Below, in pieces: positions 12,090 through 64,000 of a stretch of DNA of 64,000 nucleotides. The notes under the pieces were generated by a model. That model did no database searches and was not told the origin of the DNA. It saw only the letters and a list, made by a program, of their open reading frames with translations. Source of the stretch: Tubulanus polymorphus (Eukaryota; Animalia; Nemertea); assembly GCF_964204645.1 (NCBI RefSeq), contig NC_134026.1, positions 11,865,950 to 11,929,949 on the forward strand, in the 5' to 3' direction. The translations under genes and the position numbers were made by a program. Every line of letters begins with the position of its first letter. The stretch's first letter is position 1.

Positions 12090-12364
12090 GTAACATCTTA
12101 TTTGATTTGATTAACACAGTTGGAAAATTCGAATTCGATGCATAAGATATCGTCGATAATCGTATCAGCTTTGTTTTGAAATTCATCTCTTCGAGTTTCC
12201 ACTCGTAATTATTAGCTCAAAATGTGAGGGCTCTTTAATTGTTGGATTTCGTTAGCGTTAGTGTGCATTTTCCATTCGTAAAGTACGTAATTGTATTCAC
12301 TGAATATATTTTAACCAATAAACATTTTGTGTGTCCCTAATTTTTGCAAAATTTTTCTTCGAAG

Positions 12365-12841: not shown

Positions 12842-13175
12842 GTAAGTGTAGTGTAATCAACACGGTTGAACGGTCCTTTCGGCAGTTTCAGGTGGATAGC
12901 TCTAGCTGAATATACATTTCTATTGCTTAGTTGACAAACAGAAATAATATATGCAAGAGATCCATTCACCAATCAAGGGATGAACAATTTTGTTCCGAAG
13001 TAATTCAAACTCAAGAATTATTTTAACTTCTAGAAGCATCACAACTATGAAGCCGCGCCAGTTCGTTGCTTTTGTATAAAAGCTGACTGTAAGAGATCCT
13101 CCGCCATCTGGCATATTTCACTATGCTATGAGATTCCATTACAAATCGCTCCAAAGATATTTTTCATTCTTTCAG

Positions 13176-13365
13176 GTGGTCAGGACGATATAAATGGCTC
13201 ATTGTGGTCTAGTGAAATGCTTGACACGAGAAGGAATAGATGGATTGAGCAACCAAATTTACCAAAACCATGTAAATACAGCACTAGTGCGGCGAGTCCA
13301 GATGGTACTGTGTATCTTATTGGCGGCCAGCTTCCACCTCTCGACAGCGCCGGAATGAATGTATG
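13176..13365 (+). CDS. Kelch-repeat protein exon 3
   Basis: ttctttcag| acceptor, TG|gtaagt donor. GGQDDINGSLWSSEMLDTRRNRWIEQPNLPKPCKYSTSAASPDGTVYLIGGQ. Confidence 0.92.
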
Positions 13366-14159
13366 GTAAGTAATCCCCTCATAGAAAAATATAAAATCAG
13401 CGTCTTTATCGGTAACTGATAAGTTGTTCTACTTTTTGCACGGAATGATAGAAATTAGTGTATCATAAGTGGCTAATTTCAAAATTAGAAAAATCTTTTC
13501 ATTTGTAATTTGATGTTCGCGCACCAGTTTTTGTTTACGCCAACGCTGAACACGTGGTAATTATCATTAGTCAATTGACAGTAACTACGTCACTACGGGA
13601 TGCATCAGAAGAATTGAATCACGAATCAGGCTTGCGAGTTATTCAACTTAATCGAACACCTGTTTGGCAATTCAATTCAGAAATTTCCAGAAATGATTTG
13701 ACGTTTTAAACATCAAGTTAGTAATTAATTTGTCAAAATGCAATTTATGATCTGATTCAATAGATAACTAACCCATATCATATCGCCCATAGCGGATCCA
13801 GGGGTCGAATGTAAGTACCGCACAAGATTGCATCTCACGCAAGTGACGAGGGCCGAAGTCCCGACGCCCCAGTGGAGGGTTTGGGGTTCCCCCCCCCCCG
13901 AAAAAATTGAGTTGTTTTGCGATCCGTCGAAGACAATATCAAGCAACCAATGCCCGTGTGTTACTTATCAAGGAGTCGTAAACTTTTAAACTTTCAAGTC
14001 AGCTTTCTTTTGAAATTAGTATCACTACATAAATTAGTTATTTCGTTAGTTACTGATTAATCTAATAGATGGCGACAGCGTGATATCATAGTAGCATAGT
14101 AATTTCATCATAGTAATCATAGTAATTTACTTGAATATATGATTTTGCGCTACTTGACG

Positions 14160-20682: not shown

Positions 20683-20851
20683 TTTTACATGTTATATCTA
20701 TGTATGTTTAGAGCCATAAATAGTCACTCTATTGTATCTTTTTGTTGATGTTAACAAGTTTATTAATGATTTCCCCCCTCTAATACCGGTACCTGTAATG
20801 GTTTTGAGTGTAAATGAAATATCAACCATATATTACATTATATACGTACAG

Positions 20852-21012
20852 GACATATGCTCCATTGAGCAAACAAGCTAGACATGAGTCAGACGATGCA
20901 GAGGAATTCGGATGGAATGAACTACATAAAATTGACCAGTCCTGCAAGCTACCCGTTAATCTAAGCTGCCATTCGATTTTGGCGGTGAAGAATAGAATAT
21001 TTGTTTTTGGAG
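20852..21012 (+). CDS. Kelch-repeat protein exon 4
   Basis: tacag| acceptor completes TG|G (Trp). WNELHKIDQSCKLPVNLSCHSILAVKNRIFVFGG. Donor G|gtacgt. Confidence 0.9.
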
Positions 21013-21693
21013 GTACGTACTTGAGATAAGATTTCTGTTAGCTTGTATTCTTACAAAATCGTACATAAATACTCAAAATTTTCATATCATATCATTTTTG
21101 TTGAGGCATTCTGGGGACATGATAACAAATATCCGAATGTGAATATATGTCTGAAAAATGAATTAATGCATAGAAGATGCATTGTATTTTTACAAGACAA
21201 CTCCGTAAAAGATATTATTCAGGTATTTCTTCACAAGGCTCGTGTCGAGTGGGGGTCAGGGGTAGCGAATGAACCCCCAACGATTTTCAAAGTGCCCTTC
21301 AGAGTTAGTGTAACAAAATTCGAAATTTCAATTTCATTTTGATTTTTCTTTTCGGAAAATGAAAAGCAATCCAACTACAACGAGGCTCTATCCTTGGAAT
21401 ATCTTGTACCGCAAAATGTAGAATGTAGCAGTAAGAGAAACTATGTTAAAACATCGCCGATAGTTTAAGCCTAAATGGGCAGCTAGTTGCGAATCGATAT
21501 GATTGTTACTGTGACATTTTTGACTGGAAATTTCATTTGTTTCGAGCGTTCGATTGTTTTTTCTTTGTCATCCATTTATCTTTATACCAAAGGATGATTA
21601 TTAATCAATTTAAATTCGTCAATATATAAAGATGGTAACGACGAACTTATTCTTTGAATGGATGCATTTACCTTTTTGTGATCGATCTTATAG

Positions 21694-21786
21694 GTTTAAC
21701 AGATAGTAATTTGTACGCGATTGAAGAACATAGACGCAAGAGTAGGAGAAAAGAACCAAAAATGAATGGACCCCAAGCCAGTAATC
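21694..21786 (+). CDS. Kelch-repeat protein exon 5 (basic loop insert)
   Basis: cttatag| acceptor, C|gtaagt donor, phase 1-1. GLTDSNLYAIEEHRRKSRRKEPKMNGPQASN. Confidence 0.75.
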
Positions 21787-21964
21787 GTAAGTACCATCAT
21801 CTTAGCTGCTTTAATCGTACTCCAATTTTGGGTTCTTCGAAATCATCCGAAAGACAGAACGGCCATATTTTAGAATCAACTCGAGTTGTAAATAAATACA
21901 ATGTAGTTTCATGATTAAACATTCCGTGAGTTTAAGTACTGATGTAATTTTGCTGAACTTTCAG

Positions 21965-22087
21965 GTTTTTATGAATTTTCATTACGTCGAAATGATGGAA
22001 AGAAGCACGTGTCGTTTGGGGAATATCCCTGGCAACGAATGTTGGACATGCCTCAACCTCGATGCATGGCGGGTACAGTGAAGTTAG
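21965..22087 (+). CDS. Kelch-repeat protein exon 6
   Basis: ctttcag| acceptor, G|gtctgt donor. RFYEFSL..YPWQRMLDMPQPRCMAGTVKLG. Confidence 0.88.
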
Positions 22088-22424
22088 GTCTGTTTTTGCC
22101 GATACTTGTATTTAGGATTTCCTGGCTGTCCCACAGAAAACCCATTGTTATTCCCATGATTATAGAGTTTTCTGCTGCTTTCGAAACAAATGCTTTTGTT
22201 ATTCTGCGGATTATTATCATTTTCATTGTAACTATGTATTACTATTAATGTTACTATAAAGATAACTATTACTATCATAGTATTACTATAACTATTAATA
22301 AAAAGTTAAAGTTAATCCCTAAAAGTCACTAAAGGCCTAACGGTCCTAAAGCATTTAGCGGACTTCTACCAAATTTTTCTAGGATTATATTCAATACCCA
22401 CATGTACAATGATTTTGATTTCCT

Positions 22425-24026
22425 CCTCGAAAAACGACAAAACTAAAATAACGCGACGAAACAATAATTTTGGTTTTGTTTGTCGCCCGCGACATTTCAT
22501 TATTTTCGTTTTGTCGCCCGCGACAATTCATTTTTAGCTCTGGAGCAACGAGAGAGGTATTATGACGATGCCTGGAAATCGCTTGTGTATGTTACCTGTC
22601 GTGCGAAGCACATACATGTATGCATGCGCGCTGAACAAATAGTTCCATAATTTTAGGGCTAATTTACATTTTGGCACTTATGATTCCGCAGTGATTATGC
22701 TGAATTATGAATAAATGAATTGTCGTGATTAAAGTATTTTTCGATTAGTGAGTTGTTTATGCATTCGTGTCTGTGCGGATGAATATGACGAGACCTAGTC
22801 ATTATGAATTGAGAACCCTTTTCGCCTCCTCGAAAAATACTCTGGTCAAATTATGTTAGTTCCTGAAAGTAGCCTTTGAACCTTTAGATGTATCCCCCTT
22901 AAATTACTACACCGGTACTATTCACTGTTATTTATGTATGTATTGTCACTATATTATATTATTGTACTGAATTATATTTGTACACTACACTTAGTACAAA
23001 AGTTACAATAAATGAAATGAAATGAAATGACAATGTAGTCAGCCGTCAGCATTGCGTTTTATTGCTGTGTGGACGAAACCGCACGTGTCACCGGTAAGGG
23101 ATCGTTTTTAGCTCTACATCACTTTTAGAGGCACGAAAACAGCAAAATCGTTTCCAGAGAAATAACTTTGTGAATACTTGATTGAGTCCTTATACTGATT
23201 AATATAGCTAAATACTATAATCGCGAGGCCAATTTGACAGAAATTAAGTCCTCGCGAAAAAAATAAGTCTAAAGAACCAATCAGAGTCAAGCAACAGCTG
23301 TTCACATGAAACCGGCGGTCGCGGTATCGTCGTCTTAATATAGGCTTAAAACAGGTTCGTTTTACGACTAAAATAGGATTTCAAGTTTGATTTTTGTAAA
23401 ATCTTGAATTGACTCAGTTTATGGAAGGACTTTTCAAATGCACAACAGAAAATTTATCTTTGACAATTATGTAAGGGTTGGCAAATAGCGTTCTCTCAGG
23501 TCGCTGCCGTAGGCGTGGATGTTGTGATATACTAATCAGCCATGTGCTTACGAACAAATCCAATTTGATTTTATTCAGCAAAATATATATCAAACTAAAT
23601 TAAGCTTTGCTCAGTATAAATCAATCTTTGAGAGGAAAAATACTTCCTCTGTTACTTAAAAATTCAAAATTGTACTGTGTTAATAAAACAGGAGCGCGAG
23701 AGCACTGGACCTTTGGTCCTCTAGTTTGTTTTGTCGCCCGCGACAATTCATTGTTTTGCGCGACAAAAAAATGAATTGTTTTGGGCGACAAAACCAAAAT
23801 ATTGAATTGTCGCGGGCGAAAAAACCAAACTAATGATTTGTCGCTGGCGAAAAAACCAAAATATTGGATTTTCGCGGGTGACAAAACCAAAAGAATGAAA
23901 TTTCGCGGGTGACAAAACCAAATTTGTTGTTTTGTCGCGTTATTTTAGTTTTGTCGTTTTTCCGTAATGTCGCCCTCATTTGCTTATTCGTATTTTTTCA
24001 CGTATTTCCCTTATCAGCCACCCTAC
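22425..24026. mobile_element. Foldback element with inverted arms of 31-bp palindromic repeats (IS3EU-like), interrupted by a HINE
   Basis: Left-arm units are inverted relative to right-arm units, centre near 23760. Right end TTATCAGCCACCCTAC resembles the end at 55245-55260. Confidence 0.7.
22532..23726 (+). mobile_element. Helentron-associated non-autonomous element (HINE), family C
   Basis: 5' TTTTAGCTCT..GAGAG; 3' GCGAGAGC plus stem-loop GGACC-TTT-GGTCC plus TCTAGTT; sits in a T-run with no TSD. Confidence 0.6.
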
Positions 24027-49617: not shown

Positions 49618-50660
49618 CGATAACCACACTCAAACGTGGTGAACGGATAATAAGATAAAATCCCACTATTTACAGTTTAAAAGAATTTAAAAACCGCGGC
49701 GAAACCAATTCTCCCATCATATCGGCTCTCCAAATATCTGGCTAAAGTACTCTCTTCGGCTTTGGATACTTTTTCTGATTCTCACATTCGGCACAATATG
49801 GATCTTTTAGACAAACTCAAAAATCTCAAACCTAATGGACAAAAATTTATTTCTTTCGACGCTGTTTCCTTGTTCACAAATATACCATTGGAACCAACTC
49901 TCAATTTCTTAAGAAGAAAACTCCCGGACTCCAATCTTGATCTCCCAATTCCCGTAGAATGTTTACTTGAACTTTTGGAACTCTGTACAACCAATCTATA
50001 TTTCCAATTCAAAGACAAATTCTATGGACAAATTTTCGGTTCCGCTATGGGTAACCCATTATCCCCCATTTTGGCTAATCTTTTCCTTGAACACTTTGAA
50101 TCCGAAATTCTCCCTAAGTACGCTGGTTCTAAACCCAACTTTTGGATTAGATATGTTGATGACATTCTGTGCTTAGTTTCTGATAATTTTGATCTTACCT
50201 CTTTTATCGACTTCATCAACTCCCAATATCCATCTTTGAAATTCACTTTTGAATGGGAACAAAATGACCAAATTCCGATTTTAGATGTTCTAATTCAAAA
50301 TAAATTTTCTCATTTGATATTCTCAGTCTACCGTAAACCTATCAACGGCCGAGGCATACCTTCACTTCTTTTCGTTTACTGCTAAATCTATCAAAATTTG
50401 TCTCTCAAGGCCTCTTTCTCCGTGCACTACGGATCTGCGATGAAACCTTCCTTTCGGCTGAATTTGAACATATATCCAACTCTCTTAGAAAATTGGCTTA
50501 CCCTGATCACATTTTGAAAATCGCTATTTCTAAGGCTAAACGTACTTTCTTCAATTCTAAACCTCCAGAAAATAAAAAACACATTTCAGAGTTCATTGTA
50601 GTTCCGTATGTACCTGTTTTGGAAAAGTTTCGTCACTCTCTCCCTTTATTGGAAAAAATT
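49618..50660 (+). mobile_element. Second Penelope-like RT fragment with an inverted pLTR piece at its 5' end
   Basis: ORF 49762-50385: FISFDAVSLFTNIP, GSAMGNPLSP, WIRYVDD, IPILDV, VYRKP. 49618-49694 matches 1237-1313. Confidence 0.9.
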
Positions 50661-50742
50661 AATTGTAAAAGTGGGGTTTCAGATCAGAGGGCGAGAGGGC
50701 GAAACACCACTCATCACCACAAGTAATTTTTTTTCCTAATAA

Positions 50743-51069
50743 ATGGGAGATAGAAAAGCATTCTTAGCAACAATAAATAACAGAATTAAACCAGCAAAAA
50801 AACAATTTGAAATAAAAAAGTTAGTCGATGTTACAAAAGAAATTGAACATAAAATATTGAAATTAGAAAAGATAAAAACTAAATATGGAGAGAAAGTATC
50901 AGCGAATTTAAGCTACTGTAATGTTAGTACATCGCGAGAATTTAAAGTGTTTTTACCTGATAAATGGGTTTCATTGAGTACAGAGGAATTAAAAGATTTA
51001 GAAGGATTTAAAATAATCTATCATGGAAAAAATGAAGACGGTCATCATGATTTAGAAATTGTTGATTAA
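50743..51069 (+). CDS. Intact 108-aa virus-like hypothetical protein, possibly OB-fold
   Basis: AT-rich intronless ORF with T-run plus TAAATG start; KTKYG..FKVFLP..IIYHG beta-rich pattern. Confidence 0.65.
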   Translation: MGDRKAFLATINNRIKPAKKQFEIKKLVDVTKEIEHKILKLEKIKTKYGEKVSANLSYCNVSTSREFKVFLPDKWVSLSTEELKDLEGFKIIYHGKNEDGHHDLEIVD

Positions 51070-52065
51070 ATAAGAAATAAAAATAATGAATATCTAGAAT
51101 CCAAAATGACCTTAGTCGTTTTATAAACAACTACAATCATACAGTCAAACATCTGTTACATGTTATTATAAGAGAGTGCTTCATTTGAATATTGATCAAT
51201 CAAACAGGTGTTGCACAACGTTGTTGTTATATTGGATAGCTAGCAGTTATATAATAAGCACGCAGTACATACAACACACACCAGTACATACAACACACAC
51301 AGGACAGGAGGATAGTCATTCTCTCTCGTGATTAAAAGGAATATTTCAATGTTTTTACGGTAAGTTTTAGCAAAACCACCCGACTTAACTCGAACTCGCA
51401 GAGTTTTAAGGGGATAAGCATCCCGTTATTGAGAGGCGCCACGAGATACCTATCCCCAAGCATTTCTACTTACACCCCTGTGACCCACACCTCGCCAATT
51501 CTCCTTCAATGGTTGACAGGAAACACATTATATTAAAGGCGCTTAATGCATTTCCTATCAACCCCTTACCCCCGAAAGGAGGATCGAAAGTCGAAACTGA
51601 AGGAGAACCACGGAGGGTGGACAAAGGTGCATTTTCGAAATGCCCCTGCAAGCCAAGCCCGGCGGCACTCCAGTGGTCGAATGAATTGCCTTATATACTT
51701 AGCTAAAACACCTAAGTAAATGTTGTTGGTGCTAAAAAAATATATGAAATTTGAAATTATAAATTATTCCGAATGAAAAGAATATAAGAATGAAAACTGA
51801 TAAATGAATTATGGATTTTTAACTTAATTAAGATATAATTTTTAATGAAATTAGTAATCGATTACCATGTTAATTGATTAACAAATTCAAATTCAAATAA
51901 TTCGATTTAGCATCACACCCCACCCAGTGCTGCCATCTTTCAATTTAAGAAAAAACTAATAATAAGAAACGACTGTAATACAATATTCAAGTAAAAACAA
52001 AATAAAATATAGCTGCAAAGCAGCGATAAAGGGTTTTCTGCACAGTCTTAGAATCCTGTTCAACG

Positions 52066-52310
52066 GTGGATTTCAACAAAGCATTTGATAAGGCTCAACA
52101 TCAGCCATTACTGAACAGGCTATTAGGAAACAGTATCAATGATAGGTCGCCCAAATGGCACAGCAGTTATCTCTGAACAGAAACTTGTAACCGAAATCAA
52201 CGGAACGCCTCATCTTGGATTGAGACGGTCTAACTAGTGGAGTCACGCAAGGTAGTATCCTAAGTCGTCTTCTGTTTAATGTCCTGACAAATGACATACA
52301 CAGTAATCCA
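52066..52310 (+). pseudogene. Short degenerate LINE RT fragment
   Basis: VDFNKAFDK..TSGVTQGSILSRLLFNVLTNDI. Confidence 0.7.
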
Positions 52311-52377
52311 AAATATACCAGACCGAGTAAATTTCCAAAACAACCTTAACACACTGTTCGACCAAAAACTTAATGTT

Positions 52378-55259
52378 CCGACAAAACCACGGGCGACAAA
52401 ACCAAAATTATGAATTGTCGCGGGTGACAAAACCAAAATATTGAATTGTCACGGGCGACAAAACAAAAATAATGAATTATAGCGGGCGATAAAACCAAAA
52501 TAATGAATTGTCGCGGGCGATAAAACCACAAGAATGAATTGTCGCGGGCGTTAAAACCGAAATATTGAATTGTTGCGGGCGATAAAACCAAAATAATGAA
52601 TTGTCGCGGACGACAAAAACAAACTATTGAATTGTTGCGTGCGACAAAACCAAAATAATGAATTGTCGCGGGCGACAAAACCAAACTAGGGGTCCAGGGA
52701 CACCATGCTCACTTGGGCAGTGGTTTCAAATGCTCAACAATCTAACAATTTCAATACATAACGCCCTCTAGTGACCATATACAAAAACCAATCACTTTGA
52801 AACCCACTACAATCATAGAACATGTGAGCAGCTATGATTTTGTAATTGATTGTGATAACAAAATATGCCTCGTTACCAATTTAATATGGAAATACTAAGT
52901 TATTCTACTATTCAATGCCCCCTGGTGACCATATGCAAAACCCAATGACCTTAAAACCCACCACAATCGTAGTACATGTCATGAAATACAACTTTGCAAT
53001 TGATCATAGTAACAAAATATGCCTAGGTACCAATCTAATAAGGAAATACTAAGCCATTCTACTATTCAACGCCCCCTGGTGACTATATGGAATAACTAAT
53101 GTCCTTAAAAACTCACCACAATCATAGACGATGTCATGAACTACAACTTTGCAATGGATCATGGTAACAAACTATGCCTAGGTACCAATCTAATAAGGAA
53201 AAACTAAGCTTTTCTACTATTCAACGCCCCCTGGTGACTATATGGAATAACTAATGTCCTTAAAAACTCACCACAATCATAGACGATGTCATGAACTACA
53301 ACTTTGCCATTGATCATGGTAACAAAATATGCCTTGGTACAAAAATAATATAGTGATACTAAGTTATTGTATTATTCAACGCCCCCTGATGGCCACATAC
53401 AAAAACCAATGACCTTGAAAGTCACCAAAATCATAGAACACGTTATGGGCTACAACTTTCCAATTGAATATAGTAACACAATATGCTTAGGTATCAATTA
53501 ATTGTGGAAAAACTTGTTCCCACCTACGAATGAGTACTGATGTCACCAAGATGGCCGCCAATTGCGTCATAATTGGCTGATCAAAAATACCTGTCCGAGG
53601 TATAAAACATCCCTCTCTAAAGAATATCCATCAGCAATTGCAATGAGAAATGGCAAACCGGTAGGAAGCTACAGGACCTAGAATTCTGGCCAAAATTGAC
53701 ATTTTTGGGCACTAAAAAGGTCATAGGACGGCCATCTTGAGCCAGATCGACCCAATTTTCTTATGCTGATGGGCCTTTGGTAGATTCAAATATAAACGTA
53801 AGATCAAGGTAATTGATCAAAGCGTCTTCAAAATTTTCTTCGGGCGATAAAACCAAAATAATGAATTGTCTCGTGCGACAAAACCAAAATAATGAATTGT
53901 CGCGGGCAATAAAACCAAAATAATGAATTATCGCGGGCGATAAAACCAAAATATTGAATTGTCGCGGGCGATAAAACCAAAGAAATGAATTGTCGCGGGC
54001 GACAAAACCAAAAAAAAAATTGTCGCGGGTGACAAAAACAAAATATGAAACCCAAATAATGAATTGTCGCGGGCGACAAAACCAAAAAAAAATTGTCCGG
54101 GCGACAAAACCAAAATAATGAATTGTCGCTGGAGATAAAACCAAAGTAATGAATTGTCGCGGGCGATAAAACCAAACTAATGAATTGTCGCGGGCGACAA
54201 AACCAAACTAATGAATTGTCGCGGGCGACAAAACCAAAAAAAGAATTGTCGGGGCGATAAAACCAAAATAATGAATTGTCGCGGGCGATAAAACCAAAAT
54301 AGTGAATTGTCGTAGACGATAAAACCAAAATAATGAATTGTCGCGGGTGACAAAACCATAATGGTGAATTGTCGCGGGCGACAAAACCAAAATGGTGAAT
54401 TGTCGCGGGCGACAAAACCAAAATAATGAATTGTCGCGGGCGACAAAACCAAAAAGAAGAATTGTCGCGGGCGACAAAACCAAAATAATGAATTGTCGCT
54501 GGAGATAAAACCAAAGTAGTGAATTGTCGTGGGCGATAAAACCAAAATATTGAATTGTCGCGGGCGACAAAACCAAACTAATGGATTGTCACGGGCGACA
54601 AAACCAAAAAAAGAATTGTCGGGCGACAAAACCAAAATAATGAATTGTCGCAGGCGGTAAAACCAAAATAATGAATTGTCGCGGGCGATAAAACCAAAAT
54701 GGTGAATCGTCGCGGGCGACAAAACCAAAATAATGAATTGTCGCGGGCGATAAAACCGTAATAATGAATTGTCGCCGGCGATAAAACCAAAATAATGAAT
54801 TGTCTCGGGCGACAAAACCAAAATAATGAATTATCGCGGGCGATAAAACCAAAATACTGAATTGTCGCGGGCGATAAAACCAAAATAATGAATCGTCGCG
54901 GGCGACAAAACACAAAAGAAGAATTGTCGCGGGCGACAAAACCAAAATAATGAATTGTCGCTGGCGATAAAACCAAAGTAGTGAATTGTCGTGGGCGATA
55001 AAACCAAAATATTGAATTTTCGCGGGCGACAAAACCAAAATAATGAATTGTCGCAAGCGATAAAACCAAAATAATGAATTGTCGCGGGCGATAAAAACAA
55101 AATATTGAATTGTCGCGTGTGACAAAACCAAAATAATGAATTGTCGCGGGCGACAAAATCAAAATCATTGTTTTCTCGCGTTATTTTAGTTTTGTCGTTT
55201 TGTCGTAATGTCGCCCTCATTTGCATATTCGTGTTTTTTTTATCTTATCAGCCACCATA
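52378..55259. repeat. 31-bp minisatellite array (GAATTGTCGCGGGCGACAAAACCAAAATAAT) of an IS3EU-like element, split by HINE A
   Basis: About 10 units at 52378-52684 and about 40 at 53840-55170; terminus TTATCAGCCACCATA at 55245-55259. Confidence 0.92.
52685..53838 (-). mobile_element. HINE family A copy with an internal ~155-bp tandem array (about 5 units)
   Basis: 52685-52743 is the reverse complement of 37192-37251; 53690-53835 matches 37040-37190; TTCAA(C/T)GCCCCCTG recurs at 52911, 53065, 53220 and 53375. Confidence 0.8.
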
Positions 55260-56385
55260 CTAAAGCCTTAAGGTCGCGTAAAACTCGATAAACACTTCAA
55301 GCGACACAGCGAACGATCTCCTTTCCTCCACAGCGAACGCTTACTCCGAATGTCAAGTGTGAGTCCAGCATACGGATAGGAGTGTGTTATATACTTGTAT
55401 TTAGTAAATACCTTGTGCATTTGACAATGATCGGTATGTACTGTAGGAAATATAGAGTATTGATAAATGGTTGAAGCCCGCGGCCGAATAAAGTAATATA
55501 TTCTTTTATTTTGATACCTCGTCGACATAACAGCTTTTCTCCGCCATATCTCTTCGGCCTGTTTAGTTTAGGCCTACGATTCCCCGGTACACTAAAGATT
55601 TATCTTAGTAAATACACGGTTAATTCGGTAAAGAAAAATAGGTATTGTTAAACTAACTGCTTAAAACCCGCAGCCAAATCACTGGTAGTAATAAAGTAAT
55701 TTGTACTCGATTTGATTCTCATGATGAGGAGAAACTCGCAGCTCATCCCCGGAACGTCGATGTAGTAACACACGTCGATTCGTCGATGTTTACGGCTCGA
55801 CAGTGCTTTTAAAATCTAAAGTAGTAAATTTCCAGTGTATCGGTAATATGATTTGATGAGGAAAATGGGCTATTGTTAAAATCACTGTTTGAAGACCGCG
55901 ACTGAATGTGAAGTCTGCGGCAATAAATTAGTTCATTTATACTTGAATTGATAATCGAAGTGACAGTCGGCCTGCGGGTTGATTTCGGGATGACGACTCG
56001 AAAAACATGTCGCCCCATTGAATGGGGCTAAATTTTCGATGTTTACAGCTCGACAGCGCTTTTGTAACGATGATTCGTGAAAAAACACGCGGGCTATTTG
56101 TAGATCTCAGTGAGCTGAACGATATTATATGGATTGTATATGAAACAGCGGTAAGGTAACAAAGCCTATGTTCTTTTGGTAAAAATAGTGTGGAAGAAAA
56201 AAATAATAATAATAATCACGCGGATATCAATAGGGTTTTCTGTGAAATAACAGAAAACCCTAATTAATAAAAATAATGAATATCTAGAATCCGAAATGAC
56301 TTATCTGGACAATTTAATTGCTCCGCATAGATAGACAAAAGTAGTGAGATATTCAATTATTTTTTTTGCTTTTTTTCTAAAATAT

Positions 56386-56753
56386 TAATCCATTTTTTTT
56401 ATTATCAATTTTGGAATTTCAGAAGTATTTTCATTTTTGATAGCAGTTGTTTCAGAATTATTAATATCATGAATTTTATTTGATTTCTTATACCAATTAC
56501 ATCCAATCAAAATGAATACAATTACAAATCCAACTGTAAAATATAGATATTTATCAAATATTCTTTTATTAGAAGGAGTAGAAATAAGAATATTTTCACC
56601 ATTTTTATTAACATTTTTATTACTTATTTTTTCTTTTACAGCTTTTTTATATTCTTGTGATTTAATTCCTAATTGCCGAGACCATTCAATTTGTTTCTAT
56701 GATCTCGGTTTTTTCTTCACAGTTAATTCCTTCACCTCTCGCACTTCGCTCAT
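56386..56753 (-). pseudogene. Small single-TM viral protein with one premature stop
   Basis: TAAATG start overlapping the upstream gene; MSEVREVKELTVKKKPRS*KQIEWSRQLG..YLYFTVGFVIVFILIGCNW. Confidence 0.6.
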
Positions 56754-57291
56754 TTATTATAGAAATGTTTTTACTTTCAATATTTGAAAATGTTATAACT
56801 CCACTTGATAATAATGTCATAAATCCACCTAATTGAAATGATAAATATCCAATCCATTTATTTAATTCAGTCATAACTAAATAATCATTTTTTAAATCGG
56901 AATATAATCTATTTTCATCTTCAATTGGTAGTATATAATTACATAATTTACTATAACCTTTTACTACATTTTCTAATATCGCGTCATTAATTCTAGCTGT
57001 TCTCGCGGCTTCATAAATCTTAAATAATCTAATAATTTCATCTGATTTCATTGTGTCTAATTCATTATAAGTTAAATTTTTACCGACAAAATGTTTACAT
57101 TTTCCAGATGCTATTAATATTTCTAATTGATGTTTACAGTAAAGATAATATTCATAATTATTATTTGTTGTAACATTATCTAAAGCACCATCATCTGGAG
57201 TTAATGTTGTTTCTGTTATTCCTAAATCATCTAAAGTTTTTTCAATTGGAACATCACCATTTTTAGATTTTATTTTCTTTTCACCTACCAT
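56686..57291 (-). CDS. Viral hypothetical protein (201 aa) with a C-terminal hydrophobic segment
   Basis: Intact ORF with TAAATG start; WIGYLSFQLGGFMTLLSSGVITF. Confidence 0.8.
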   Translation of the reverse strand: MVGEKKIKSKNGDVPIEKTLDDLGITETTLTPDDGALDNVTTNNNYEYYLYCKHQLEILIASGKCKHFVGKNLTYNELDTMKSDEIIRLFKIYEAARTARINDAILENVVKGYSKLCNYILPIEDENRLYSDLKNDYLVMTELNKWIGYLSFQLGGFMTLLSSGVITFSNIESKNISIINERSARGEGINCEEKTEIIETN

Positions 57292-57321
57292 TTATATAAA
57301 AAATAAATTAGTTGTGTTGTT

Positions 57322-57583
57322 GCAACTAGAATTCAACTAGAATGTAACTACAATTCAACTAGATTAACAAGCTAGTTGAAATATTGTTATTTTTGTTTAT
57401 TTCTTGTTAAATCTAGTTGATTTTTGTTTCAACTACTAACAACTAGAATTCAACTAGAATGTAACTAGAATTAAACTAGATTAACAAGCTAGTTAAAATA
57501 TTGTTAAATCTAGTTGATTTTTGTTACAACTACCAATAACTAGAATTCAACTAGAAGTCAACTAGATTAACAAACTAGTTGAA
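57322..57583. repeat. Intergenic iteron/hairpin array, candidate origin or regulatory region
   Basis: Three blocks of 11-bp CAACTAGAATT-like units, each closed by AACTAG-ATTAACAA(G/A)-CTAGTT. Confidence 0.8.
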
Positions 57584-57584
57584 T

Positions 57585-58193
57585 TTAAATAAATTCATAT
57601 TTAAATGGGTGTTGTAATCTAAATAGTAATTTTGATCTTTTAATATTTTTCAACTTATCCATATATTCATTATGTAAATCATGTGGAATAATATCATTTT
57701 CCTCAAGTGCATTTTTCATCGATTTTCTATCTTTATTGTAGAATAAAACTAGAAATCTAATGTTTTCTCTAAAGTCTTTAATAATTGAATTATATTTTTG
57801 ATTTAAAACCCATGTTGTTATCCCAAAATGTCTCCCAGAGAAAGCTAGATAACATAACTCACTTTCTCTAACTTTTGAATCATGTAAATTTGCGCAATCA
57901 TCTATGATAAATAATGTATTTGATCCTTTATAAATATCAATTGCTATTTTTATACAATTATCTAAATTTTCTTTTACTGTTTTAGGATCTAATATAATAA
58001 ATTTATTATTTCTAGTAATATTTCTATCATAAGTTTGATTAAATTCATATGTTGGGCAAAATAATACTATATTATCAAAATAGTTTTCATAAACAGTTTC
58101 TAGTAAATTTAATATAAAATAAGTTTTTCCACAATTTGTTACGCCAGATATTAACATATTATGAGGCTCAAATATAAATAATTCCTTATTCAT
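57585..58193 (-). CDS. A32/FtsK-HerA-like genome packaging ATPase
   Basis: Walker A GVTNCGKT, Walker B LFIIDD, SGRH arginine motif, VLNQ sensor. Confidence 0.9.
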   Translation of the reverse strand: MNKELFIFEPHNMLISGVTNCGKTYFILNLLETVYENYFDNIVLFCPTYEFNQTYDRNITRNNKFIILDPKTVKENLDNCIKIAIDIYKGSNTLFIIDDCANLHDSKVRESELCYLAFSGRHFGITTWVLNQKYNSIIKDFRENIRFLVLFYNKDRKSMKNALEENDIIPHDLHNEYMDKLKNIKRSKLLFRLQHPFKYEFI

Positions 58194-59580
58194 TTATATA
58201 TTTTTAATTTTACTTGATAATATCCATTCATTAAATTTATCTGGCCATCCAACCCATTTTACTAAAGAATATTTTTTTCTTTTAATAGTTTTTGTTTTTA
58301 ATACTTTTTCAATTTTATATTCTTGTTCTAGATTTTCAGTAGTTAAACTTAATTCTTCTTCGTAAAAGTAGCCATCAACTTCTTCACCATCTAAATCTTC
58401 TAATCTATAGACATATGGTTTTGTTGTTATTACCTTTTTTATTTTATATATTTCTCTAGTAAAATTTCAATCGTATCCCTTGTCAAATATCTTTTTATAC
58501 TTAGAAATTCTAACATTTTGACCAACTTTAAATTTAGGTTCACCAAAATCATTTACTAGAAATCCTCCATATAAATTATTCCAAACAATTTCAGCATTTT
58601 CAGGTTTTCTAGCATCAATAGGTTTCATTCCAATAGAAGAATGATAAGAATTATTATATCCTTCTATCAATTTTGGTAAAACATCAATCCATTTAAAAGT
58701 ATTATTTGCTGTAAAATATGTCCACATTCTTGTTCTTAACCCTTTCAGTGCTGACTAATTAATACCCTATAGTGCTGGAGAAAATTTGAAAATTCTAAAA
58801 AATTCCACCCTAGTGTGTTGAACAATGGGAATACCACTATAGTGCGTCTACACCGCAGTGCGGTGTATCGTTAGTTACTAGTATTTCACTATGTTTGACA
58901 CTTGCTGCCATTTTTCAATAGAGATAATTACAAATTACTAATTACATCAATACACCGCAGTGCGGTGTACTAGCAAAATCCATCACTGATTTATACACCG
59001 CACTGCGGTGTAGACGCACTGAAAGGGTTAATGTTCTATTAAATCGTTCAACAACTGCTGCTTCTATCCGATTTTGTTGAAAAATATTTAATATTATGAT
59101 TATCTAAGAGTTCATGAACAAGTGAATTATCAAACTCTTTTCCATCATCAAATTGTATTTTTTCTGGTTTCAGTTTATCATCCGAAAGAAATTTTCTTAA
59201 AACATTTGATGTTTGTACAGCATCTTTTCTATAAAGTGGGAAACTCCATACACATAACGACTAAAAATATCAATTATATTCAATAACCACCAATAATCAT
59301 CATTATCTTTCTTAACATTTTTCATATCAATTAAATCTCGCCACTGTTGATCTACATAAATTCATAATTTTACGAGTTTTATATTTTCTAACAATTTTTT
59401 TATGTGTTGTATATGTTGGTTTTTCTAACATAAATTCATTTATATCTTTATATTTAACTAAATTTTGTGGGATTATCTTATCTAATTTATCTTGTTTTAC
59501 TTGACGCCATATATTTTTGTTAGAAGAATAAGCAACCGAACTCTCAGGGTTGTAATATAAATTTCTTAAATATTGTTCTT
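58194..59580 (-). pseudogene. Polinton-type retroviral-like (rve) integrase with C-terminal chromodomain; frameshifted and MITE-interrupted
   Basis: YLRNLYYNP; DQQWRDLIDM; IQFDDGKEF; VVERFNRTL|RTRMWTYFTANNT; YNNSYHSSIGMKP; PKFKVGQNVRISKYK; YKIEKVLK..LVKWVGWPDKFNEWI. Confidence 0.92.
58740..59027. mobile_element. piggyBac-type MITE (288 bp)
   Basis: TTAA TSD at 58736-58739 and 59028-59031; TIR CCCTTTCAGTGC; internal TACACCGCAGTGCGGTGTA palindromes. Confidence 0.93.
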
Positions 59581-60827
59581 TTTAATATTTCTTAAAAATT
59601 GTGAATTTACAATATTTAATTGTGCGTCAGATATAATATAAATGTGCATTTTAAAATTTAAGCTTCCTTTTTTCTTTTTCATGAATAATTGTATTCCATC
59701 TTTAGCGTTCTGTAGTTTTTTCCCAGAACCATGTAATGAATTATCCTCTGTTGTTCTAAAATCTAACCATAATGCATATTTATTGCCGGTATAATAATCA
59801 ATTTGATTAATATTACAATTTTCAAATGATTTTACTTTTTCATTCATAAAATGTTTTCTAATTTCTGGCCATTGATATATCATTCTCATTCTTTGACAAA
59901 ATATTTTATTTGCCTATTCCTTCGATAGTTATTTCTACTTTTGTTATTTCAGGATTATAATGATTATCTACCTTTATTGCACCATTAGAATATGTTGCAA
60001 TGGTAAAAAATATTAATATACCTTTAATAGATCTTCTTGGGAAGTTAATATTCTCATTAATTATTTCATCATTTGCATTAATAGTTACAGTTTTAAATTT
60101 ATCAATATAATCATATAATAATGAAAATCCTTGATTGTATTGAGTTTGAATTGTGCTAGCAATATTTTCATTTGTTACTGTGTTATATTCTAAACATATA
60201 TTTGATAATTTATAACCCATATCTTTAACAACGCTAGATAATACAATTTCATTTACAGGCGCAAATGTTATCTCAAATATAATATCTTCTTGAATTACAT
60301 ATTTATATAAAGATGCATTATTATTTATCAATTCAAAGTCTAATGGAATTTTATATTTGCTTCCATAAATCTTTTTTATCAAATTATCTACAGCATTAGT
60401 TGCTACTGCATTATTGGCTTCAGATCTTAATTTATTATGGTTTTCCGATTGAATACCCTGAAATATCATATTATTTCTATTTTCTTTAGTTAACGATAAA
60501 TCTTTATAATGCATAAATAAATTATAATCATCTAATGAGAAAAACTGTTTCTGGACCAATCTTTATTGTTAATTTTTTAATCAAATATCTTCCAACATTA
60601 TCAACAACATAATTGTTATCATGGCCAGTTACTTTTATATCAGTTGATAAATAAATACTATTTGGAACATAAAAAGTATTTTGTGTTAATCGAGGGATTC
60701 TTACATATAAAGTTTCATCGGGATTAATATTTGAAGGGTTATGAGTAATTATATGATGTGATCTTTCTGCTTTAATAGCATTAGATATTCTAGAAATCTT
60801 AGAAGGACTTATATAACTCCCACTCAT
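59566..60827 (-). pseudogene. Probable double-jelly-roll major capsid protein, split by two +1 frameshifts (about 420 aa)
   Basis: Three consecutive ORFs rejoin on removing one base near 60540 and one near 59912. Beta-rich, with NFPRRSIKGILIFF and YALWLDFR. Size and position beside ATPase and integrase fit a capsid protein; the fold is inferred. Confidence 0.7.
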
Positions 60828-60847
60828 TTAACAAAAAAATTAATTAT

Positions 60848-62293
60848 TTATTTTTTATTATTTTTTTCTTGATATCTTTTTGATATCATATTCACTAACC
60901 CAAAAATAATAGCACTTACAACTGTAATTAAAAATAAAATAATATGTTCAGCAGCAAAGTTAAGAATATTCCCAGCAGATTTCAATATAAAACCAACAAT
61001 TGATGCAATAATTCCTGGTAAAGCTGCAGCAGATTTTTTAGATAGTTCCCATAAATATTTTGCTAATTTCTTTAAACCATCTTTAACTTTATCTTGTATA
61101 GAATTATTACCTGGGGGTTTATCTGGTTTATTTGGAGTAGGAGTAGATTTCAAAGAATTTGATATTGCCAAACCAATTGTTGTAAATAACATAGTTACAG
61201 CTGTTAGAATTGAAAGAATTGTTATTCCTTCTAATCTAAATAATAACTTTATTCTATCTTTTAATGATATTTCAGAATTTGGTTTAATCAACAAATCTTT
61301 AAAAATAACTTTTAATCTATTAATATTATAATCATATGATTTTAATAATAATTTAATTTCTTCTTTCTGTACTTCTAAATTATCTTTTAAATTACTAATT
61401 TCTTTTTCTGAACGTAATTCTTTTTGCCTATATTCTATTTCATCAATTACTTGATGATCTAAATCAGACTTTATTTGTTCTATTTCTTTATTTGCATTAG
61501 TTGATTCTTTTTCCAAATACATAATTTTTTGATCTCTTATACTTTTATTATGTGCAATTTTATCAGCTTCATTTCTTATACTAATAATTTCTCTAATTGC
61601 TTCATCAGAAAATATATTTAAATCTTCTAATTGTTGATCTGTTGCATCAATTAATCCATTCGGTAAAAGTTTTTCAATTGACTTTATTCGATTTAAGTTT
61701 ACTAGTTTTGGAAGTTATATTCTGTTCAGATGTTGTTTCTGTTTCTGATTTCTTTTTGATTATTTCAAATAATTCATTAATTCTTTGTTTAAATACGTCT
61801 ATATCATTATCAGTTAATTCTTGTTTTATAACATCAGTTATTACATTACTATTACTTATTCTTTTAATTCTATCTGGATCTAATTTTCTCAAAGTTAATT
61901 TTTTTATAATTTTTTTTTATAAGTGATATCAATATAATAATCATCTTTCAAACGATAATAACATTTACCATTATCTAAAAATTTTAATTGATCTGCTAAA
62001 AGTCCAACGTCTTCATCATTTATGTTAAGTTTAGATTTTTCAATTAAATCTTCTAATTTAGGTATTTTGTTTAAATTATCTAAATCTTGTTTTACTAAAC
62101 CTGGGTCTAAATTTTCAGGATTTAATTGTGATTCTGCATTTTTAATATAATCAGGCATATTTAAATTATTATTATATTCTGGCTCATTACCATCATTAAA
62201 ACTTGTTTCACTAAAATCAGGTTGTTGTTCATCAGTTATACCAGGTTCATCAAAAGGATCCATTCCAATATCTTCTCCACCTTCTACATCCAT
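60848..62293 (-). pseudogene. Large viral coiled-coil membrane protein (about 480 aa), frameshifted into three ORFs
   Basis: Acidic N-terminus, coiled coil, then three hydrophobic stretches (GITILSILTAV.., AAALPGIIASIV.., HIILFLITVV..). Breaks near an A-run at ~61905 and at ~61670. Confidence 0.7.
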
Positions 62294-62309
62294 TTATATA
62301 ATAAAAAAA

Positions 62310-63425
62310 TTAAAATTTAAAATATAATATTCCTCCTATAACAATTCCTATACAAGTAAAAGCTAATTTAGTATTTTCATGTAATTTATTATGATTATCA
62401 GTTTTAATTATATCATGTTGAATATTATCAGTTTTAATATTTTCTGTAGTATTGTAATCTTTTATTTTGGAATCATTATTTAATTTAATATTATTAGTTT
62501 TAGTTTCTGTTGATTGAATGTGTTTTTTATTTTTTTCACCTTCCATTAATTTTGGAGCAGTAATAATCTTTTTATTTATATCATTCAATCCAAATGAATT
62601 ATTTATTGTTGCAGTTTTAATTAGATTATTATAACCAATTATATTTCCCATCTTTAATACTAAATCATTAGAAATAATAAATAGATTAGGGCCTATACAA
62701 TAATTTAATCTAATATGTGATTTATCTAAATAATTTTGATATCTTACAATGTTTTCCGGAATCGATCTATTTTTATCATTATGAATTGAATCTTCAAATA
62801 ATACTTTGAATTGTTTCTGCGCATCGAATGAAGTGTTATCATTTCCAATTATTGGGGATCTTGTTTCAACTTGCGCACCTAGAATACATATCAAATAAGT
62901 TCTAATAGATTGATTTATTCTTTGTATTCCAGCTTTAGTAAAACCTTCACTATTTTCTAAAATGAAATTAACCCAACCATTATTGTTTTGTTGTTGCATA
63001 TTATTATAATATTTTGGTAATTCATTCCAATTTAGTGTTCTTATATCTGAATTTGTCATTATTTTTCCAAATTCTTTAGTATACAATATTCCTAATCCAC
63101 CCATTGTTCCAATTTTTGCTCTAAAATCTTTATTTGAATTAATATTAAATTCATTACATATTTTATAAAACTTAGAAAAATTAATATCATTATTCAATTC
63201 TTTAAAATATTTTGAACCTGGTAAAGGACATTCTAATTCATCTAATATTAATTTTATTTGAAAATATGTATGAAATCTAAAAAGTGATAACATCAATGGT
63301 AAACTTGGTTTGTTTAAATGATCATTCCAACTAATTCCACATCCTGTTGTTGCACAATAAACAGCAAAATTTAATTGGTTCTGCCAATACTTCATATTAG
63401 ATTTTAATAACCATTGTTTTGCCTC
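62310..63425 (-). CDS. Viral hypothetical protein with C-terminal TM anchor, probably N-terminally truncated
   Basis: ORF 62310-63395 extends upstream as EAKQWLLKSN; QLNFAVYCATTGCGISW motif; C-terminal LAFTCIGIVIGGILYF. Confidence 0.75.
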   Translation of the reverse strand, partial: EAKQWLLKSNMKYWQNQLNFAVYCATTGCGISWNDHLNKPSLPLMLSLFRFHTYFQIKLILDELECPLPGSKYFKELNNDINFSKFYKICNEFNINSNKDFRAKIGTMGGLGILYTKEFGKIMTNSDIRTLNWNELPKYYNNMQQQNNNGWVNFILENSEGFTKAGIQRINQSIRTYLICILGAQVETRSPIIGNDNTSFDAQKQFKVLFEDSIHNDKNRSIPENIVRYQNYLDKSHIRLNYCIGPNLFIISNDLVLKMGNIIGYNNLIKTATINNSFGLNDINKKIITAPKLMEGEKNKKHIQSTETKTNNIKLNNDSKIKDYNTTENIKTDNIQHDIIKTDNHNKLHENTKLAFTCIGIVIGGILYFKF

Positions 63426-63711
63426 ATTTTGAACTTATACCAGTTAAAACACTTGAACTTAATCCTAATACACCAATTGATATAGCTAAAGGTGTTAATG
63501 GACTGAATATTGCTAGAAATGTTATTACAGAACTAATTGTAACCGAACCACTTATAATCAAATAGTATATAATTTTACTTTTTAAATATTTTTTCTTTTT
63601 AACTTTTAAATCATTTTCAAATTCTAATATTTGTTTTTCTAAATATGATTTTAATTTAGTTTTATTTATATCATGAGGAATAATGTCAATATTATCAACT
63701 TTATCTTCCAT
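63424..63711 (-). CDS. Viral two-TM small protein, possibly C-terminally truncated
   Basis: TAAATG start; basic stretch followed by two hydrophobic helices. Confidence 0.7.
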   Translation of the reverse strand: MEDKVDNIDIIPHDINKTKLKSYLEKQILEFENDLKVKKKKYLKSKIIYYLIISGSVTISSVITFLAIFSPLTPLAISIGVLGLSSSVLTGISSK

Positions 63712-63730
63712 TTATTTAGAAAAAAAATTA

Positions 63731-64000
63731 CTAATTAGTAAACTTATAAGCAACAAATATAACAATAACTGTTCCACCTAAAATCCAAATTATTTCATAT
63801 TTCTTCTGTTCATTACTTGGGGTATAATAATCTGATATTGTAGGTTTATGTAGATGTAATTTTTCTTTATTGGTTACCGCGTTATATAAACTCTTTGCAT
63901 CATCAACTAATTGAAAATCTCTATGTGAAATCTTCTGATCATATAATTCCTTGTTAATATAATCCATATAGTTTTTTTTGTCGTTTCTCTCTATATTCTT
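63731..64000 (-). CDS. Viral protein with C-terminal TM; frame open to the window edge (partial)
   Basis: No stop between 64000 and 63734; IIWILGGTVIVIFVAYKF. Confidence 0.7.
   Translation of the reverse strand, partial: KNIERNDKKNYMDYINKELYDQKISHRDFQLVDDAKSLYNAVTNKEKLHLHKPTISDYYTPSNEQKKYEIIWILGGTVIVIFVAYKFTN

Follow-up and report, generated by a model that had tools for sequence, protein, structure and literature searches.

Analysis of a window of 64,000 nt from the Tubulanus polymorphus genome (NC_134026.1, forward-strand positions 11,865,950-11,929,949) identified an endogenous Polinton-like virus that belongs to the Polinton-3_NV lineage, is decayed and occurs in many copies. The element is likely a satellite, i.e. 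a virophage-like parasite that would be transcribed by the late machinery of a poxvirus-like helper, because all seven surviving gene starts carry a poxvirus late-promoter signal. The original prediction of a double jelly-roll capsid in an endogenous Polinton-like virus was borne out, as was that of a co-oriented and intronless gene set, and all genes from 56385 rightward lie on the minus strand. Most genes of the window copy are broken, and the copy number is roughly 50-150.

The element stands out as a block of 24% GC (23-24% for the element) within host DNA of 37% GC. Its left limit had been placed at 56266, which proved to be wrong, and the element reaches approximately 50670 beyond a 5.2-kb insertion. 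The probable left end (50670..50742, plus strand) begins with AG and includes the TAAATG promoter of ORF108. X1 contigs diverge from the window sequence at 50657, X6 depth is 1,100-1,500 across 50559-50880 compared to approximately 760 and 450 in the next bins, and a truncated Penelope-like reverse transcriptase (Pfam RVT_1 match, 49798-50385) adjoins this end. It is the only probable element end within the window, and the right end lies beyond 64000. ORF108 (50743..51069, plus strand), which the first reading had missed, belongs to the element; it encodes no transmembrane (TM) segment, shares 74% identity over 102 aa with positions 125-466 of the relative locus L001 and shows a dN/dS of 0.33. 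A placement of ORF108 inside a terminal inverted repeat (TIR) of a complete, polymerase-less 11-kb unit was dropped, as the upstream DNA of L001 is unmatched and the relative L006 has pPolB.

The later insertion is flanked by a 40-bp duplication, whose left copy (51071..51110) is 93% identical to 56261-56300 and whose right copy lies together with a conserved non-coding stretch of approximately 100 bp (56261..56368, plus strand; 82% identity over 101 nt to L001:2433-2532). The counterpart of this stretch in L001 sits behind another gene. Three X1 contigs, read by eye, join 51110 directly to the window sequence after 56300. The inserted DNA (51111..56260, GC 0.38) consists of non-viral host repeats, including tandem arrays with units of 31 bp and 155 bp as well as high-copy repeats, parts of which recur elsewhere in the window, and X6 depth reaches the thousands across 52008-52300 and 54500-56084. 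A CTAG-rich array of 11-bp repeats occupies an intergenic gap at 57323..57583, and L001 contains an unaligned gap at the same place.

The core genes matched their predicted identities. The A32-like genome-packaging ATPase gene (57585..58193, minus strand) retains an open frame, matches Pfam Pox_A32 (PF04665, E 4.4e-13) and shares 81% identity with L001 at a dN/dS of 0.15. The putative major capsid protein gene (59566..60827, minus strand; dN/dS 0.17) is spread over three frames, with breaks near 60.55 and 59.91 kb and its last codons lost, and its fragments are 69-77% identical to P0001, an intact natural capsid relative of 415 aa. The model of P0001 (pLDDT 88.5) adopts a double jelly-roll fold, with Foldseek matches to iridovirus and PBCV-1 capsids (E ~1e-16, TM 0.62-0.68), which supports the assignment made for a beta-rich protein of approximately 420 aa. 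Its top BFVD matches are unnamed or NCLDV capsids, and a weak NCLDV Capsid_N match was found in 36 of 57 members. The rve integrase with its C-terminal chromodomain, also as predicted, is in pieces (58194..59581, minus strand), with frame breaks, a stop, a MITE and a lost start; Pfam matches were obtained for the fragments (rve E 0.008, Chromo E 3e-5) and for an intact relative (rve E 1.5e-10). Approximately 0.27 kb of L001 between the capsid end and the integrase has no counterpart in the window copy. The MITE (58740..59027) has 12-bp terminal inverted repeats and TTAA on both sides, and we take it to be of piggyBac type from its TTAA/CCC..GGG signature. Thousands of loose read ends were found at its borders, and 192 X6 reads represent sister copies without it. 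In 15 loci, a gene for approximately 240 aa looks beta-rich and is a penton candidate, and in relatives a fibre-like protein (PHROG tail fibre E 1e-25) adjoins it.

The reported absence of pPolB and an adenain protease from the visible part was borne out by HMM and Pfam searches. No pPolB was found in 1115 window frames with an HMM built from the polymerases of five relatives. This lack probably reflects the window edge, because L006, a member of the same subclade (E 3.5e-84), and both TIR-bounded relatives, L030 and L032, carry pPolB; it was also found in L021 and L035. The TIRs measure 133 nt at 99% identity in L030 and 99 nt at 100% in L032, with AGTAG-type ends. A maturation protease gave no Pfam match in the 11 element ORFs scanned, in 59 frames of L030 and L032 or in L001, although Pfam can miss a divergent protease. 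No Pfam match to PLA2 or gasdermin was obtained among the ORFs scanned. No integrase was found in L030, and the replicase of L031 is of helicase type.

Six genes had been proposed to encode TM-like segments. Using the Kyte-Doolittle peak over a 19-residue window, a hydropathy prediction only, five of them were predicted to encode TM proteins (windows 1.66-2.65), and the block is real and conserved, four of its predicted TM genes being found family-wide. The sixth, ORF201 (56686..57291, minus strand; dN/dS 0.32), is a family gene with homologs in 22 loci, whose C-terminal hydrophobic helix peaks at 1.35 and thus below the TM threshold. The remaining genes are likewise on the minus strand. A small single-TM protein gene (56385..56753), broken near its start, is 50% identical to L001:9951-10340 over 130 aa; its TM score is 2.02, a TM segment is predicted in four of five near-full homologs and constraint is weak (dN/dS 0.77). 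The gene at 60848..62293 is split over three frames and encodes a coiled-coil protein with two to three C-terminal TM segments (65% to L001:4328-5782 over 265 aa), which are predicted in all 15 near-full homologs. The largest TM protein, of approximately 440 aa (62310..63428, start lost; 81% to L001:2996-4321), comprises a globular domain, a disordered linker and a C-terminal TM helix, the latter predicted in 106 of 120 homologs. It has 1241 homologs, some of them in the bivalve Mactra antiquata, and a dN/dS of 0.14. Its model (pLDDT 82.6) had no structural match in BFVD (best E 0.23) or PDB, and a further fold search (VIA best Z 4.5, rmsd 3.2, 93 aligned) produced no listed match. A two-TM SLATT-like protein follows (63424..63711, C-terminus cut; 77% to L001:2541-2972), for which the L001 homolog matches Pfam SLATT_fungal with E 0.0013, under the curated cut-off; a stretch of approximately 0.38 kb in L001 is not represented here. 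The last gene (63731..64000, start beyond the window; 70% to L001:2014-2430) is the C-terminal part of a protein of approximately 140 aa whose N-terminus is hydrophobic and rich in Gly; its C-terminal TM segment is predicted in 16 of 18 homologs. Profiles of the capsid, the penton candidate and the coiled-coil, 440-aa and 140-aa proteins gave nothing below E 0.1 against PDB sequences, and neither profile nor fold comparison revealed homology of the TM proteins to known virion membrane proteins. No description of the TM block was found in the accessible literature covered.

The conserved predicted TM proteins are linked to the capsid module, and the particle may be a membrane-containing virion. 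That these proteins recruit a membrane as virion or assembly parts is a reading to which we give somewhat less than even weight. They could instead be cargo of a holin-, SLATT- or Bcl-2-like kind that acts on the host, in lysis or against a helper, a serious contender that also falls short of an even chance. One of the membrane genes is SLATT-like and is more likely a host-conflict accessory, L016 contains a Bcl-2 gene, two TM genes are weakly constrained (dN/dS 0.77 and 0.44), and Polinton-like viruses (PLVs) commonly carry holin-like and SLATT proteins (10.64898/2026.10.13.758929). However, the four TM genes recur beside capsid genes at 33-38% capsid identity, and the block is present in both TIR-bounded relatives, whereas integrase and replicase vary. 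The 440-aa protein is moreover as constrained as the capsid. Cargo genes, by comparison, are usually patchy.

The evidence for a helper comes from the gene starts. TAAATG was found at 7/7 preserved starts in the window (ORF108, the single-TM gene, ORF201, ATPase, capsid, coiled-coil and SLATT-like genes) versus 10/268 other ATGs of the element; six of the seven starts have a T at -12, and a T-run lies approximately 10 nt upstream. This putative promoter, which was missed originally and tells most about the element, has the layout of vaccinia late promoters, in which TAAAT followed by G overlaps the start codon and, within a group of Ts upstream, the one at the 10th nucleotide is conserved (PMC11980589; PMC4542343). 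In the subclade, defined as 16 loci with a capsid identity of at least 50% and counted over ORFs of at least 100 aa, TAAATG was found at 55/65 first ATGs versus 95/2321 other ATGs (50/60 starts once two near-duplicate loci were dropped). Outside the subclade it occurs at 8/227 starts in 51 loci; L051 (3/3) and L044 (2/2) carry it although they lie outside the 50% group. The motif is restricted to one subclade; the 50% grouping was chosen after the motif data were seen and is backed by a 25-row capsid tree, which places 10 of 11 TAAATG rows on one branch (100/98). A T at -12 accompanies 44/50 TAAATG starts versus 28/86 non-start TAAATG (Fisher p 1e-10). Across subclade starts, 88% have T at -12 and 76% at -13, with the T-run centred 9-10 nt upstream. 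In L001, 15 of 17 listed ORFs start with TAAATG, the misses being an ORF in antisense orientation and a fragment from within the integrase, and the motif precedes all gene classes, kinase and accessory genes included. This use ahead of every class differs from vaccinia late promoters, as does an A-rich block at -18 to -16, which is more like vaccinia intermediate promoters. Stop-start coupling was rejected as an explanation, as TAA is the upstream stop codon in only 3/60 starts. No title on polinton promoters appeared among the papers found with TAAAT, nor one on animal polintons among those listed for late-promoter terms.

The signal could also belong to a different machinery, the helper being asfarvirus-like or another nucleocytovirus, or the subclade having a poxvirus-like polymerase of its own in the manner of yeast linear plasmids, which is considered unlikely. 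The helper need not be a poxvirus, because the frequent TATATAAATG, read at many starts, also fits the asfarvirus-type late motif TATATA of ASFV and pacmanvirus (PMC11788076); yeast linear plasmids have a polymerase of their own and use TAAAN as initiator (PMC6211774), and two relatives, L016 and L028, have VLTF3-like genes (Pfam E 6e-4 and 4e-5, respectively). Against this, many other starts are AATAAATG or TTAAATG without TATATA, and the fixed contact of TAAAT with ATG and the upstream T-run follow the poxvirus layout. No RNA polymerase subunit was found among the 15 ORFs scanned in L001, which is an incomplete locus. A similarly doubtful reading is that of an autonomous, nucleus-replicating virus or transposon of Polinton-3_NV type, read by host RNA polymerase II, with TAAATG as an inherited or compositional start context. 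The element does integrate, is multicopy, has a chromodomain integrase and a GC content that would suit such a context, and there are sister subclades without the motif. AT bias was nevertheless rejected, as seven AT-matched loci outside the subclade have TAAATG at only 1/24 starts, the motif persists in L006 and L007, where GC is 40-44%, and enrichment of the T at -12 is limited to starts. If a TATA box abutted the ATG, polymerase II would moreover begin transcription within the gene, and animal start codons are poorly served by a T at -3.

Under the preferred reading of a satellite of a poxvirus-like helper, the rve integrase would insert the linear genome into host chromosomes, and upon infection the cytoplasmic RNA polymerase of the helper would start at TAAAT sites. 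The genome would be copied by a pPolB, which is known from relatives and would lie outside the window. The A32 ATPase would fill the double jelly-roll capsid without a maturation protease, and the conserved TM proteins would serve as virion or assembly components recruiting a membrane. Subclades that lack TAAATG, which show an excess of TATA-like words upstream of their genes, conserve the TM block to the same degree, and therefore the membrane genes are independent of the helper lifestyle. Evidence of a helper, be it a sequence, a co-occurring virus or a transcript, was not encountered. Nor did IMG/VR indicate free virions, as it gave no match for the capsid or 440-aa alignments; it also gave none for a 361-aa ORF and one weak match, L068, for the ATPase alignment. 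ESM Atlas yielded no usable match for the 361-aa ORF, and two short contigs in MAGs from a prokaryote-genome scan were taken as binning contamination. An enveloped virion with a fusion protein, the boldest form of the earlier suggestion, is very unlikely and unsupported: several TM proteins, among them a coiled-coil protein with C-terminal TM segments, and nematode Mavericks that reportedly carry a fusogen (10.1101/2022.07.12.499685) speak for it, but neither the 440-aa nor the coiled-coil protein has an N-terminal hydrophobic leader (L001 and window), the largest TM protein lacks a structural match, no likeness to known fusogens was seen by profile or by a fold search that is inconclusive by the tool's own caveat, and the fibre-like protein beside the penton candidate suits a naked vertex.

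The lineage had been called divergent, which holds insofar as the standard protease-bearing Maverick set does not include it, but it is not new. Polinton-3_NV of Nematostella vectensis, known since 2014, has a PLV-like capsid, possesses MCP and ATPase and is protease-minus (Table S1 of PMC4028283). Its capsid is colinear over the whole length and agrees with alignment A1 at 15 of 16 invariant columns (by eye, also versus A8). As in Polinton-3_NV, the ATPase is present, no protease was found in the element or the relatives scanned and the hosts are animals; the TM block, the promoter and the penton candidate are absent from the published descriptions in the parts accessible (penton listed as absent in 2014; PMC4028283). 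The closest systems are cnidarian and bivalve polintons with PLV-type capsids (PMC4028283; PMC10120064; 10.64898/2026.06.19.733378). Cnidarian capsids of this type have been placed beyond the Maverick-Polinton cluster (PMC10120064), and ATPases of octocorals, hydrozoans and bivalves have been linked to Aquintoviruses. With Maverick-Polinton groups 1/2 and adintoviruses (Polintoviricetes) the element shares the double jelly-roll capsid, A32 ATPase and rve integrase, and its relatives share pPolB and TIRs, but it differs in the protease, for which two TIR-bounded relatives, L001 and the window ORFs gave no Pfam match.

Mavirus and Gezel-14T/PgVV are likewise small integrating double jelly-roll viruses whose genes carry the promoter of a large virus; Mavirus and Sputnik use the late promoter of their helper (10.1101/2022.07.28.501842), and PgVV is the nearest non-polinton match of the Polinton-3_NV capsid. 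This virophage-like feature, a promoter motif of large-helper type, was found here at the window and subclade starts counted above. Their hosts are protists and their helpers of mimivirus type, whereas here the host is likely an animal and the motif of poxvirus type. PLVs that occur with entomopoxviruses offer a parallel, since parasitism of a poxvirus within an animal has been proposed for them (PMC11296320); that paper contains neither 'promoter' nor 'TAAATG'. They differ in being placed with the Polintoviricetes-containing clade (10.64898/2026.10.13.758929).

With 403 clusters (50% identity) for E up to 1e-30 and 3426 up to 1e-3, this is a large lineage, but neither its core membrane genes nor the 440-aa protein, which found no structural match, have been annotated. 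Because the change of promoter concerns a single subclade, one capsid lineage may accommodate shifts in lifestyle. In a tentative scenario, to which we assign well under an even chance, the subclade has adopted poxvirus-type late promoters throughout and is the endogenous virophage of an undiscovered invertebrate poxvirus; membrane-containing particles would be built from its unique membrane proteins in the cytoplasmic factory of the helper, and the many host copies could be an inducible anti-poxvirus defence. These observations bear on whether animal polintons form virions and need a helper. A helper-type promoter predicts transcripts with 5' poly(A) leaders starting from TAAAT only when a large DNA virus is present, and names the kind of virus to be sought; the promoters of endogenous parasites may also reveal unseen poxvirus-like viruses of invertebrates.

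Across window positions 56261-64000, GC content is 24%, as against 37% in the surrounding host DNA, and the genes of the element are intronless and lie on the minus strand. The co-oriented, intronless viral genes of the original prediction, including those for an A32-type ATPase, an integrase and a putative capsid, were borne out. A metagenome scan yielded 67 loci related to the element, and one of them, the main comparison copy L001 (11.5 kb), has the gene content and order of the window element at 75-85% nucleotide identity. Window 50743-51069 was matched by one L001 gene at 74%, five kb to the left of the predicted element start at 56266. The intervening gap is flanked by the left (51071-51110) and right (56261-56300) copies of a 40-bp duplication and its two sides are joined in three contigs of sequencing run X1, which identifies the gap as an insertion of host repeats. 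The probable start of the element lies at about 50670, within a Penelope-like reverse transcriptase. A TTAA-flanked MITE interrupts the integrase gene, and the window element lacks the equivalent of two L001 stretches (about 0.27 and 0.38 kb). Penelope fragments, LINE fragments and a fragmented kelch gene are also present in the window and, together with the hosts known for named relatives, suggest that the host is an invertebrate animal; pieces of a kelch-repeat host gene were located at 12322-13366 and about 20800-22250 (the second by eye), and a 31-bp tandem repeat of very high copy in the reads forms several arrays (23764-23922, 52390-52685 and 53841-55165). Copy number was gauged from raw reads of run X6 (same species label, 12% of the run, 85% likeness). 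Depth was 75-940 in the coding bins of the element, MITE excluded, versus 4-6 in the lowest flanking bins, and related copies number roughly 50-150, a rough figure. The dN/dS ratios relative to L001 were 0.14-0.33 in 8 of 10 frames and 0.44 and 0.77 in two genes with transmembrane segments.

The A32 ATPase is intact in the window (Pfam E 4e-13), and the chromodomain-bearing integrase and the gene of about 420 amino acids are fragmented in this copy. The middle piece of the latter gene retrieved 58 longer protein matches, mostly of about 415 amino acids. The best of these, the intact natural relative P0001, spans three window frames at 69-77% identity. An AlphaFold model of P0001, built from a 57-sequence alignment (pLDDT 88.5), matched the major capsid proteins of an iridovirus and PBCV-1 (E about 1e-16, TM 0.62-0.68), so the fold check of the putative capsid returned a predicted double jelly-roll fold. 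Since P0001 was the protein modelled, the capsid identity is shown for this intact relative and does not extend directly to the broken copy in the window.

All seven preserved gene starts in the window carry TAAATG, versus 10 of 268 other ATGs of the element, with a T at -12 in six and at -13 in the seventh; of the remaining starts, two lie in lost stretches and one beyond the window. A group of 16 loci was defined by a capsid identity of at least 50% to P0001, a threshold set after a first look at the data. In this TAAATG subclade the motif was found at 55/65 first ATGs versus 95/2321 other ATGs, and several of the ten exceptions are internal fragments of broken genes. The other 51 loci showed it at 8 of 227 first ATGs, and the seven AT-matched ones among them at 1 of 24. 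Removal of two near-duplicate loci left 60 starts, 50 of them with TAAATG, and a T at -12 accompanied 44 of these 50 versus 28 of 86 non-start TAAATG sequences. Stop-start coupling was rejected as the source of the motif because it accounts for only 3/60. A capsid tree was built from 25 selected rows; ten of the 11 TAAATG rows share one branch in it (support 100/98), the long-branched L051 standing apart. L051 has TAAATG at 3/3 starts and L044 at 2/2; their capsids are 29% and 37% identical to P0001, the motif there being either older in origin or gained independently. With TAAATG at the start codon and an upstream T, these starts resemble vaccinia late promoters, in which TAAAT followed by G overlies the start codon and a conserved T is the 10th nucleotide upstream, among Ts (PMC11980589). 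The same promoter element was used in the annotation of salmon gill poxvirus (PMC4542343). No report of a poxvirus-type promoter in polintons was found in the part of the literature that the searches covered.

A second decayed, AT-rich block (window 17350-19950, plus strand, GC 19-25%) contains remnants of a long ORF, the motifs of which we take to recall Rep_trans-type initiators (no Pfam match). It also has a small frame with a transmembrane-like segment, two TAAATG starts with T-runs (19384 and 19623) and a CTAG-rich repeat resembling that at 57323-57583. Comparison with the main element and the related loci gave neither a nucleotide nor a protein match, and the block may be a piece of a different virus that had promoters of this type.

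The divergent lineage originally proposed turned out to be one already described. The capsid of Polinton-3 of Nematostella vectensis, given as a row in the supplement of PMC4028283, is colinear with the element family and matches 15 of 16 invariant columns of the capsid alignment A1 (by eye). In Table S1 of the same paper, Polinton-3_NV is scored positive for capsid and ATPase and negative for penton and protease. The capsid of Polinton-3_NV has been described as the closest one to the Polinton-like virus (PLV) PgVV. Among metazoans, only cnidarian capsids lay outside the Maverick-Polinton cluster (PMC10120064), and octocoral, hydrozoan and bivalve ATPases were grouped with Aquintoviruses (2026 preprint, Bellas and Sommaruga). 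The lineage is thus a known one, though sparsely described; it is large, with copies also in the bivalve Mactra antiquata. Both pPolB and a protease had been noted as not visible. Since pPolB is encoded in the TIR-bounded relatives L030 and L032, and the end of its gene is present in L006, a member of the window's own subclade, its absence probably reflects the window edge. The lack of a protease is probably a lineage trait, with no Pfam protease match in the 59 frames of L030 and L032. L030:1-13235 combines pPolB, the capsid module and a complete block of transmembrane-protein genes; an integrase was not found in it. A 1209-aa replicase at L031:9970-13596, in the same capsid lineage, matches the helicase families AAA_30 and AAA_19 and not pPolB. 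In the TAAATG subclade, L001 (10343-10981) and L007 (2898-3380) have deoxynucleoside kinase genes (E about 1e-31). Relatives outside this subclade carry a gene of the Bcl-2 family (E 2e-18) and VLTF3-like genes (L016:2448-2858, L016:6543-7049 and L028:5082-5576).

Six genes had been credited with transmembrane-like segments; the prediction was clear for five (hydropathy window 1.66-2.65), and the sixth peaked at 1.35. Predicted segments were kept in near-full homologs of the coiled-coil protein (60848-62293; 15/15), the 140-aa protein (63731-64000; 16/18) and the 130-aa protein (56385-56753; 4/5), and for the 440-aa protein (62310-63428) the loci gave 10/11 and the database proteins 106/120. 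The controls gave 2/35 for the capsid, 2/30 for the ATPase and 0/10 for the integrase. Of 19 mostly partial loci of at least 6 kb, 15 contain the coiled-coil gene, 13 the 440-aa gene and 10 the integrase. In the confident model of the 440-aa protein (pLDDT 82.6), a globular domain is followed by a disordered linker and then a C-terminal helix, and no structural match to it was found. Its family alignment A3 contains invariant Q/N, H and D/Q residues and a nearly invariant cysteine pair, which could form a catalytic or redox site. PLVs commonly carry SLATT and holin-like genes (10.64898/2026.10.13.758929); a SLATT-like gene was recognized by sequence only in L001 and the window, and a two-transmembrane gene of another group in nine loci. 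The suggestion of an enveloped virion gained no support and is unlikely: profile and fold searches gave no resemblance to a known fusogen, and relatives encode a fibre-like protein adjoining a candidate penton gene. This candidate (L001:565-1326), without a profile match, has homologs in 15 loci and adjoins the fibre-like gene in several; the lineage was listed as penton-minus in 2014. The transmembrane block accompanies the capsid module, which would be expected of virion membrane proteins, a role that we propose tentatively.

Integration in many copies, the capsid, ATPase and integrase, the motif and its restriction to one clade are established. Mavirus and Sputnik use the late promoter of their helper and Gezel-14T the early one (10.1101/2022.07.28.501842); the element bears a late-promoter motif of poxvirus type. 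Transcription by some viral multi-subunit polymerase is quite probable, and a poxvirus-like helper is the somewhat favoured source. Alternatives to such a helper are promoters of the TATATA type, as in asfarvirus (PMC11788076), and a TAAAN initiator, as used by yeast linear plasmids (PMC6211774). Reading of the genes by host Pol II is unlikely. With a poxvirus-like helper, the late polymerase of that virus would transcribe the element in the cytoplasm, pPolB would copy it and the A32 ATPase would fill a protease-independent capsid, under which the transmembrane proteins might recruit a membrane. Against this mechanism stands the equal conservation of the transmembrane block in subclades lacking TAAATG.

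The element is thus real, as the original prediction had it, and belongs to a known lineage; what is new is the poxvirus-type promoter on every preserved gene, which had escaped notice. This promoter makes the helper dependence of an animal polinton directly testable, and its type points to a large virus still unseen.
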